The translations under genes were made by a program, and so were the position numbers. A stretch of DNA of 64,000 bases from Escherichia coli (lineage in GTDB: Bacteria; Pseudomonadota; Gammaproteobacteria; Enterobacterales; Enterobacteriaceae), in NCBI RefSeq assembly GCF_044647545.1, contig NZ_CP172818.1, one strand, 5' to 3'. Below, piece by piece: positions 19,813 to 21,693 of this stretch; the first letter of the stretch is position 1, and every line of letters starts with the position of its first letter. The notes beneath the pieces were generated by a model. It was not told where the DNA came from, made no database searches, and was given only the letters and a program-made list of their open reading frames with translations.

Positions 19813-20196
19813 CTATTGATTTACGGTTGAGTCAGGACGCACTCTTTTTTGATCGCGTTTAGCCAGACCATCAACCACCAGATTCCACGAATCGTTGATC
19901 AGATCGCGAAGTAACGCTTCGGAGATTTCCTCGCCGGGATACACCGAAATCCAGTGCTTTTTATTCATGTGATACCCTGGCTTGATGCTTGGGTATATTT
20001 GCTGATTTAGCAGGGATTTTTGTGGATCGGACTTCAGATTGATAAAGGGGACGCCGCGCAGCTCCGACGACAGCATAAAAATCTTGCCGCCAATTTTAAA
20101 AACATCGAACTCCGGGCCAAAAGGCCAGCAAAGCTCGACAAAGGGTAACTCAAGAGCCAGGCGTTTCGCCGTTTCGTGCAGTGATTGCTTATCCAT
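19813..20196 (-). CDS. ybdF: Uncharacterised small cytoplasmic protein
   Basis: Start chosen at the internal Met ([19 protein letters not shown]…) giving about 122 aa; the longer 167-aa ORF would overlap ybdJ and is rejected. Confidence 0.75.
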
Positions 20197-20260
20197 AAAC
20201 GTTCCTTTAGGCGAAGGAGAATAAGCAAAGTATGCCGCGAAGTTCGGCGATAATCGACGT

Positions 20261-20509
20261 TTAATCCGCCAGCGAGAACCAGCGTCGCCAGATAAAGCGC
20301 AGAACAAAATACTCAATAGCGCCCAGCACTAAAAACCACAGACAAAACAATAAAGTGTAAAGCTGGCTAAGATCCATCAGATGGAACGTGGTCACCAGTT
20401 TTTGTGCCAGCGTCAGCCCCAATGCGGGGGCGGGAAGCAGCAGGCAAGAGAGGAAAGCCATCAGCAAAATGCCTGCTGCGGTGGTCAAGGTTTCTAAAGG
20501 GTGTTTCAT
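20261..20509 (-). CDS. ybdJ: Small inner-membrane protein of unknown function
   Basis: 82-aa ORF with two hydrophobic helices (…[21 protein letters not shown]… and …[18 protein letters not shown]…). Confidence 0.7.
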
Positions 20510-20574
20510 AACATTGTTAAATGTAAGTTAAAACACCATTGTCAGGGATATTCTTCTGTAAGGCAATTCCCGGC

Positions 20575-21693
20575 TTAGTCACCGGCCCAGATCTCACAAT
20601 GCTTTTTCACCAGCCCAATCAGCGAGCCGCCATCGGCGACGAAATCGCGCATCAGCTGCGCTTCATTCAGACCGCTGACGACCTGGCGATGCAGTGCTTC
20701 AATTGCGCTCGATGCGCCAATTTTATTTGCAGAAGGGGCGATTTTTTCCAGCAATCGCAAGGTGTCTTCCGTTAGCGGTCGACGATCGCCAGTGTGCGGA
20801 TCGGTAATGACGCCTTCCAGCCCATAGCGGCAGGCCTGGAAACGGTTGAATTTATAAAGAAGGTAATCTTTCTCCTGATTTTTAAACGGGCGTTCCGTCA
20901 GTAACCAGTGGGCGGTAGCCTGAATCAATCCTGCCATATTTACCGCATGGCTAAGGGTTAACGGGGTATCCATTACCCGAACCTCCACCGTGCCAAAATG
21001 AGGACTGGGGCGAATATCCCAGTGCAGATCTTTAATGCTGTCGATCATCGTGGTGTAACTCAGGCAGCGAAACAGGGCTTCAAATTGTTGCCAGTTACTG
21101 ACCCACGGCATCGGGCCATTATCGGGAAAGGCGGAAAAAATATTCGGTCGTGAGGAGGCAAAACGCGTATCCGTTCCTTGCATATATGGCGACGCGGCGG
21201 AAAGGGCGATAAAGTGCGGCACAAACCGTGACAGGCCGTGCAGCAAATAAATGGCATCATCGCCACTGGCGCAACCAACATGGACATGCTGACCAAAAAC
21301 GGTCGCCTGTTGAATGAGATAACCAAAGTTTTCCAGCGTTCGTTGATAGCGTTCGTTATCGCATACCTCCTGACGCTGCCATTTCTGAAACGGGTGCGTG
21401 CCACCGCCGCAAATTTCCAGATGATGATCTGCGGCTGCCTGCAATACGACTTTCTGCATCGCTGAAAATTGCCCGGCAGCCTGGTTGATATCACGGCAAA
21501 CATCCGTCGCCAGCTCCAGCATACTTTCGGTGATATCGTGCTTTACCTCTCCGGCCGTGATCTTATTTTTAACTGCGTCAATCAGCATTGAAGAGTCCTG
21601 GCTTAAGTCATAGCCCGGCGGATTAACCACCTGCATTTCCAGTTCAATACCGAGGGTAAAAGGTTCAGAAACATGAAAATCGGGTAATGGCAT
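20575..21693 (-). CDS. ybdK: Carboxylate-amine ligase (glutamate-cysteine ligase family 2)
   Basis: 372-aa [33 protein letters not shown]… recognised as YbdK. Confidence 0.88.

Follow-up and report, generated by a model that had tools for sequence, protein, structure and literature searches.

Three genes of the Escherichia coli chromosome, ybdK, ybdJ and ybdF, follow one another on the same strand with only short gaps between them, and the question arises of whether they work together as one system or have simply come to be neighbours. The triad was analysed in a 64-kb window of an E. coli chromosome, to which all coordinates refer unless another locus is named. Comparison of gene order across the Enterobacteriaceae indicates that it is very probably a chance juxtaposition of separate modules and not one system. 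Gene identities, synteny and conserved motifs come from the present analysis; operon structure, growth-phase response and in-vitro activity are taken from the literature. The triad has the following parts, in the order of transcription.

ybdK, 20575-21693, minus strand: 372 residues, a carboxylate-amine ligase of the GCS2/YbdK family, ATP-dependent (open reading frame, annotation and family match)
ybdK-ybdJ spacer, 20510-20574, minus strand: 65 nucleotides (nt)
ybdJ, 20261-20509, minus strand: 82 residues, a DUF1158 inner-membrane peptide with two predicted transmembrane helices (PF06643 and hydropathy)
ybdJ-ybdF junction, 20197-20260, minus strand: 64 nt, the site of the ram genes in other Enterobacteriaceae
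ybdF, 19813-20196, minus strand: 127 residues, a small soluble protein of the MmcQ/YjbR family (PF04237 and NF007603)

The ybdK loci of 80 species-representative genomes were compared, each with 7 kb on either side, at YbdK identities of 71-99% and with neighbours located by tblastn; the counts of the different patterns overlap. The order ybdK-ybdJ-ybdF-nfsB is contiguous in only 5 of the 80 loci, all of them Escherichia-type sequences, and ybdJ and ybdF are adjacent in these five only. Conserved synteny outside E. coli, by which a first-pass annotation had proposed to judge any link between the three genes, is thus not found. ybdK and ybdJ are adjacent, with a spacer of about 70 nt, in 46 loci and lie 2-4 kb apart in 10; 18 show no ybdJ within that 7 kb, and another six that lack it are too short to judge. 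The conserved partners of ybdF are ramR, which abuts it in every one of the 31 loci holding both, and nfsB, which adjoins it wherever both are present (30/30). A functional link of all three genes, which the same annotation had raised, does not stand up to this pattern, in which synteny is confined to Escherichia and ybdF keeps to ramR and nfsB; we infer that no three-way link exists among ybdK, ybdJ and ybdF.

In Salmonella, Citrobacter, Trabulsiella and others, ybdJ and ybdF are separated by ramA (AraC-type, oppositely oriented), often romA (metallo-beta-lactamase-fold), and then ramR (TetR-type, co-oriented); the stretches compared were positions 8434-9651 of locus L013, 8434-10715 of L017 and 10249-14283 of L082. 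The stop codon of ramR overlaps the start codon of ybdF, as TAATG in Salmonella and as ATGA in Citrobacter, an overlap that had been noted by Rosenblum et al. 2011 (PMC3117140). In Salmonella, Klebsiella, Enterobacter and Citrobacter, the ybdF and nfsB of the ramR-ybdF-nfsB stretch are orthologous to those of E. coli and are ordered alike. Unlike these genera, E. coli lacks ramA, romA and ramR, and its ybdF follows ybdJ; instead of the ramR overlap, the gene has a free-standing 64-nt leader with its own Shine-Dalgarno sequence (AAAGGAA upstream of the ATG). It is the absence of ramRA in Escherichia that makes the triad tight, and Escherichia appears to have lost ramRA, rather than the other genera having gained it. 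A remnant of ramR or ramA was looked for in the E. coli ybdJ-ybdF spacer and no similarity was found, nor does this spacer resemble the Salmonella or Citrobacter junction beyond the gene ends.

Inserted genes are found at the ybdK-ybdJ junction as well. In Enterobacter and Lelliottia (L082-L085), ybdJ lies 7.4 kb from ybdK, and the interval holds an oppositely oriented resistance-nodulation-division (RND) pump, a membrane-fusion protein and a P-type ATPase; a 36-residue open reading frame, co-oriented with ybdK, precedes the ATPase on the strand of the ATPase itself. A Fes-like esterase lies between ybdJ and ramA in both genera, together with a TonB-dependent receptor in Enterobacter, and Klebsiella and Raoultella have no ybdJ downstream of ybdK. 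Both junctions seem to be hotspots for island insertion, and islands are tolerated at each of them by what is an old backbone of the chromosome, ybdK...ybdJ...ybdF-nfsB. Two of the loci have labels that do not suit their contents. L002, which belongs to the five contiguous loci, bears the label Marinobacter sp. B9-2 but has 99% E. coli sequence, ordered as in E. coli; L074, filed under Chryseobacterium sp. 18061, is an enterobacterial ybdK locus with a Citrobacter-like order. Both are probably contaminated or mislabelled assemblies.

The E. coli arrangement was probably assembled from three modules. The first would be ybdK, with a sigma-S-type promoter of its own that drives transcription as cells enter stationary phase; the second ybdJ, a gene of the Enterobacteriaceae only, usually about 70 nt downstream of ybdK and apparently provided with a conserved promoter-like element of its own; and the third ybdF, whose ancestral context would be ramR-ybdF-nfsB in the ram/mar xenobiotic-stress neighbourhood. 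The absence of ramA, romA and ramR in Escherichia would have brought ybdJ and ybdF together, and their joining would have allowed read-through from the ybdK promoter, giving the five-gene operon of E. coli. That operon would then be a lineage-specific fusion of modules by way of ramRA absence, and caution is called for when function is deduced from membership of an E. coli operon.

Transcription of the locus brings in the genes on either side of the triad.

nfsB, 19081-19734, minus strand: 217 residues, a nitroreductase, downstream neighbour of ybdF (open reading frame and annotation)
ybdG (mscM), 17726-18973, minus strand: 415 residues, a mechanosensitive channel, last gene of the mapped operon (open reading frame and annotation)
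hokE, 22145-22297, plus strand: flanks the ybdK side of the triad

Mapping of the operon by RNA sequencing, which the first-pass annotation had put forward as a check, was already published in 2014 and gives a single five-gene operon: Conway et al. 2014 used the locus as a worked example, with a primary transcript ybdK-ybdJ-ybdF-nfsB-mscM (PMC4161252). Within it, stationary phase induces a ybdK-specific unit, which stops at an internal terminator, and a unit of nfsB-mscM that starts at a secondary promoter is expressed in log phase and vanishes in stationary phase (PMC4161252). Independent expression of the three genes, which the annotation had named as evidence against a link, is therefore only partly borne out: one primary transcript is shared, and the internal units respond in opposite directions (PMC4161252). 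The description "tightly spaced" also needs qualification. The gaps are indeed short (65 nt between ybdK and ybdJ, 64 nt between ybdJ and ybdF, and 78 nt between ybdF and nfsB), but the genes nowhere overlap in the manner that suggests translational coupling, and the intervals leave space for internal signals. In comparison with the K-12 operon (b0581-b0577 region), the window has the same genes, order, strand and spacing.

Two short conserved elements are candidates for such signals.

TCTATACT, 21731-21724, minus strand: candidate extended -10 element of the sigma-S type; its end is 30 nt upstream of the ATG of ybdK (conservation)
TTGCCT (20566-20561), 17 nt, GACAAT (20543-20538), minus strand: promoter-like element of the ybdK-ybdJ spacer (conservation)

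The first of these belongs to a box, C[TC]ATA[CA]T, that ends 25-35 nt before the ybdK ATG in 71 of the 72 distinct upstream sequences that the 80 enterobacterial loci provide. The box is the sole conserved element there, the remaining DNA upstream of ybdK being unalignable, and the gene that flanks ybdK on this side varies by genus (hokE, entD, a major facilitator superfamily (MFS) gene or an ApbA-family gene). TCTATACT resembles the sigma-S extended -10 consensus, and its sequence and conservation point to a candidate sigma-S-type -10 box of a ybdK promoter. Such a reading fits the stationary-phase ybdK transcript, and also the expression of ybdK in O157:H7 at the transition to stationary phase (log2 +2.98, with ybdG at log2 -2.36; PMC2241611) and the peak at ybdK obtained with the RpoS holoenzyme in systematic evolution of ligands by exponential enrichment (SELEX; PMC5493296). 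Its presence in 71 of 72 distinct upstream sequences would mark YbdK as a conserved stationary-phase enzyme across the Enterobacteriaceae.

The second element has the form TTGnnn, exactly 17 nt, GACAAT in 41 of 45 distinct ybdK-ybdJ spacers. It is followed by conserved blocks, TTTTAAC...TTAAC, and several blocks of the spacer are at least 90% conserved, as against 53% identity to E. coli at the third-codon positions of ybdK in the same genomes. TTGCCT-17-GACAAT agrees with the consensus at 8 of 12 positions by our own count, under the threshold of 9 of the consensus promoter scanner, which flagged neither this element nor the ybdK box. Its conservation suggests a separate putative promoter of ybdJ, and the spacer might hold an operator or a translation signal in addition to the promoter. 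ybdJ has no Shine-Dalgarno sequence, and an RNA hairpin over its AUG is only modestly better than shuffled sequence (z -2.17). An intrinsic terminator after ybdK, as candidate for the internal terminator of Conway et al., was looked for in this spacer and rejected, since the consensus scan was empty and only the modest AUG hairpin was found.

YbdJ matches PF06643 (DUF1158) with 156.5 bits (cutoff 25; E 2.7e-46) and has two hydrophobic peaks, with Kyte-Doolittle values of about 2.2 near residues 22 and 61. Among 5.8 billion proteins, the DUF1158 family accounts for just 617 clusters at 90% identity, and its named members are all from the Enterobacteriaceae. In Salmonella, ybdJ was induced 33-fold in a multidrug-resistant mutant, and neither a ybdJ knockout nor an over-expressor had a resistance phenotype (PMC5681696). 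In the Salmonella locus L013, the open reading frames of ybdJ and ramA are convergent and their 3' ends overlap by about 35 nt (8400-8434; longest ramA reading frame, first ATG). In view of this overlap, the 33-fold induction may be read-through from ramA rather than regulation of ybdJ. A literature search found nothing relevant on a link of ybdJ to RamA or MarA.

Some points weigh against a reading of the triad as separate modules. The primary transcript common to all three genes in E. coli means that some co-expression is real (PMC4161252). The adjacency of ybdK and ybdJ, with a spacer of conserved length, persists at 61% YbdK identity (L086) and may be the mark of a functional pair and not of an inherited order. 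The synteny data would also be compatible with a link of recent origin in Escherichia. The broadest alternative, in which all three genes serve one pathway or complex (for example, a ligase with a membrane partner and a DNA-binding regulator of the operon), would account for their co-orientation, their short gaps and their common primary transcript in E. coli K-12. It is nevertheless highly improbable, given that only Escherichia has the triad unbroken (5 of 80), that in all of the 31 other loci with both genes ybdF abuts ramR and is parted from ybdJ by an oppositely oriented ramA, and that the internal transcription units respond oppositely to growth phase.

A narrower alternative deserves more credit, although it too is doubtful: ybdK and ybdJ may be a two-gene functional pair, in which a soluble ligase acts at or with a small membrane protein and ybdF is unrelated. 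The two genes are adjacent and co-oriented, about 70 nt apart, in 46 of the 80 species and again at 61% YbdK identity; ybdJ lies within about 8 kb of ybdK in every locus examined; DUF1158 is confined to the Enterobacteriaceae; and outside the enterics YbdK-type ligases usually adjoin a membrane transporter gene. However, both genes survive where inserted and oppositely oriented islands split the pair, as in Kosakonia, Enterobacter, Lelliottia and others, ybdJ is not downstream of ybdK in Klebsiella and Raoultella, and ybdJ, which lacks a Shine-Dalgarno sequence, seems to have its own promoter-like element. The Salmonella ybdJ mutants, moreover, were without a resistance phenotype (PMC5681696), and the adjacency may be plain inherited gene order within one family. 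Separate modules remain the preferred reading.

YbdK matches PF04107 (GCS2) with 325 bits (cutoff 21; E 5.9e-97) and the NCBIfam equivalog model NF010040 (YbdK family carboxylate-amine ligase) with 580.6 bits (cutoff 425). It is near-identical over its full length to PDB 1R8G (E. coli YbdK; E 9.3e-259), a sequence search also matched the Salmonella structure 1TT4, and the match to these solved structures assigns it a glutamine-synthetase-type fold. In an alignment of 14 sequences at 33-60% identity, the GxExE motif (G15-I-E17-L-E19) is invariant, and so are E60, H136, H138, R228, E237 and R239; the signature GhExE defines the carboxylate-amine ligases of the glutamine-synthetase fold (PMC2588565). 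With other members of the GCS2/YbdK family (relatives include mycobacterial EgtA and the Pup ligase PafA) YbdK has in common the fold, the GxExE metal/ATP motif and the acyl-phosphate ligase mechanism, whereby a carboxylate, probably the gamma-carboxylate of glutamate, would be activated as an acyl-phosphate and joined to an amine. Unlike most non-enteric members, enterobacterial ybdK has no adjoining partner of the Na+/H+-exchanger family.

The first-pass annotation had regarded the physiological substrate of YbdK as unassigned, and the literature agrees, offering only the slow or weak ATP-dependent gamma-Glu-Cys ligation in vitro of Lehmann 2004, as cited in passages of PMC9563957 and PMC2588565, and nothing newer that assigns a substrate. 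This activity is one ground for taking YbdK to be a second glutamate-cysteine ligase, one of stationary phase that supplies the synthesis of glutathione, as the database name "glutamate-cysteine ligase 2" implies; membership of the GCS2 family, in which related NCBIfam models are named glutamate--cysteine ligase, is another. Such a role is unlikely, however. YbdK lies under the cutoffs of every NCBIfam model of that name (the best, NF010043, gives 279 bits against a cutoff of 409) and under that of the GshA-type family PF04262 (17.2 bits; cutoff 27), and NCBI names its own family only "carboxylate-amine ligase". Mutants in gshA are not known to make glutathione, although ybdK is present. The rate in the passages cited is low, ybdK is not induced with the glutathione-dependent response that detoxifies methylglyoxal (PMC3739934), and gene contexts outside the enterics point to transporters and a PuuD-like hydrolase, not to gshB. 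In an ASKA oxidant screen, ybdK is one gene name in a long list.

The contexts outside the enterics offer a different lead. Across the whole library, 4,401 clusters at 50% identity are related to YbdK, and eight sampled representatives, at 38-61% identity to it, were all above the NF010040 equivalog cutoff. Gene contexts were looked up for ten representatives of these clusters, with the following neighbours.

PF00999 (Na_H_Exchanger) gene directly upstream, with an overlap or a gap of no more than 12 nt: 3 of 10 representatives
overlapping MFS transporter gene downstream: 1 of 10 (P0135)
DUF1158 gene downstream: 1 of 10
RimK and RimB-like gene: 1 of 10
thioredoxin, cyclic-nucleotide (cNMP)-binding protein and class-II amidotransferase genes: 1 of 10
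no informative neighbour: 3 of 10

A metagenome scan added 54 loci (L122-L175) with ligases 42-48% identical to E. coli YbdK, of which 46 had readable upstream DNA. In 41 of these 46, a co-oriented PF00999 gene stands upstream of the ligase and has its end anywhere from 11 nt inside the ligase gene to 176 nt before its start, with many overlaps (1, 4 or 11 nt); the 41 loci are not independent and form 7 clusters at 70% identity, in DNA of 54-72% G+C. The linked exchangers are proteins of about 400-450 residues, of which only the membrane domain PF00999 was matched, and no NCBIfam model matched them. The observation of exchangers beside YbdK relatives covers L122-L175 together with L087, L089-L091 and L095. 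In seven loci, a Peptidase_C26 gene lies 2-6 nt downstream of the ligase and its protein is distantly PuuD-like (79.9 bits against the PuuD equivalog cutoff of 266). ThiL-like genes downstream of some relatives were considered as partners and judged to be housekeeping neighbours. As for the enterics, the 64-kb window contains no homologue of the PF00999 exchanger (best E 0.043), nor do the 80 enterobacterial loci have one in the 7 kb on either side of ybdK.

These contexts suggest that the ancestral role of the YbdK family may have been tied to cation/proton transport and to the turnover of gamma-glutamyl amides, and that the enteric genes lost their partner. As a more specific and quite tentative proposal, rather improbable as it now stands, YbdK-family ligases would be dedicated partners of secondary cation transporters, in a module that couples reversible gamma-glutamylation or adjustment of the glutamate pool with cation/proton antiport. 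If so, an exchanger-ligase module could serve ion homeostasis in stationary phase or under osmotic stress, and E. coli would be a derived case, the exchanger lost, with a sigma-S-driven ybdK, ybdJ and an operon that ends in mscM. A comparable association is that of KefF with KefC and of KefG with KefB, in which a transporter of a cation/proton-antiporter family and a soluble, enzyme-like ancillary protein are encoded in the same operon. The non-enteric pairs resemble these in that co-oriented genes for an antiporter-family protein and a soluble enzyme stand together, often with overlapping stop and start codons. They differ in that the partner is a ligase and not a quinone oxidoreductase, and lies downstream and not upstream; the analogy is drawn from the genes alone, and no such arrangement is present in E. 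coli. The triplets of exchanger, ligase and Peptidase_C26 recall in turn the PuuA/PuuD putrescine cycle, as they pair a ligase of the glutamine-synthetase fold with a gamma-glutamyl-amide hydrolase. Unlike that cycle, however, their ligase is of the GCS2 and not of the PuuA type and their hydrolase is far below the PuuD cutoff, and the triplet occurs in only seven loci and is absent from the E. coli ybdK locus. No paper on the pairing of exchanger and YbdK was found, although it may already show in gene-neighbourhood databases; for a family with a structure solved about 20 years ago, the pairing outside the enterics would be a testable lead to the substrate.

The remaining member of the triad, YbdF, matches PF04237 (YjbR) with 85.5 bits (cutoff 30.1; E 4e-24) and NF007603 with 260.5 bits (cutoff 183), and by sequence its solved relatives are 2A1V, 2FKI and 2KFP/3H9X. 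It is on these grounds a putative DNA-binding protein of the YjbR/MmcQ "double-wing" type, and in that family DNA binding is itself deduced from structures (PMC7641849). A reading frame initiated at TTG, which would lengthen the protein to 167 residues, was rejected, as a Shine-Dalgarno sequence precedes the annotated ATG and residue 1 is where the family profile begins. The C-terminus (19813-19830) is a variant that makes YbdF of the window strain slightly longer than in the K-12 operon: it has 127 residues, the NCBIfam profile has 122 positions, and most orthologues are about five residues shorter.

The triad belongs to the core chromosome of E. coli and is already known and annotated in thousands of genomes. 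When 4 kb around it were used as a query, 5,420 of 5,426 complete E. coli genomes matched, at least 80% of the query being covered in one place in 5,063 of the 5,420, and the stretch itself is 95-100% identical to that of more than 5,000 genomes. The limits of 19813 and 21693 fall exactly at the ybdF stop and the ybdK start. The first-pass annotation's three co-oriented minus-strand genes between nfsB and hokE have exact coordinates, with which the annotation of an identical strain agrees, and its identities and protein descriptions (a soluble YbdF, a two-helix YbdJ and a ligase, YbdK) are upheld by the family matches and the two hydropathy peaks. For the five minus-strand genes, the list of open reading frames agrees with what RefSeq annotates on an E. 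coli chromosome of 100% identity. Since the genes are annotated core genes and the operon structure is published, the locus is already known and in itself matters little; the value left lies in the substrate question of YbdK and in the lead from transporter linkage.

The best genome matches are 100% identical to the query, yet these closest relatives carry the insertion sequence IS421 between hokE and entD, where the window has no insertion element. Rfam has no known RNA element inside the triad, its only matches being sok beside hokE and small RNAs near entD. In the window, a hok/sok-type locus (21997-22297 and 22298-22418; hokE, and sok with 79.4 bits in Rfam) stands between ybdK and entD; Salmonella has entD on the strand of ybdK, 78 nt upstream of it (L013).

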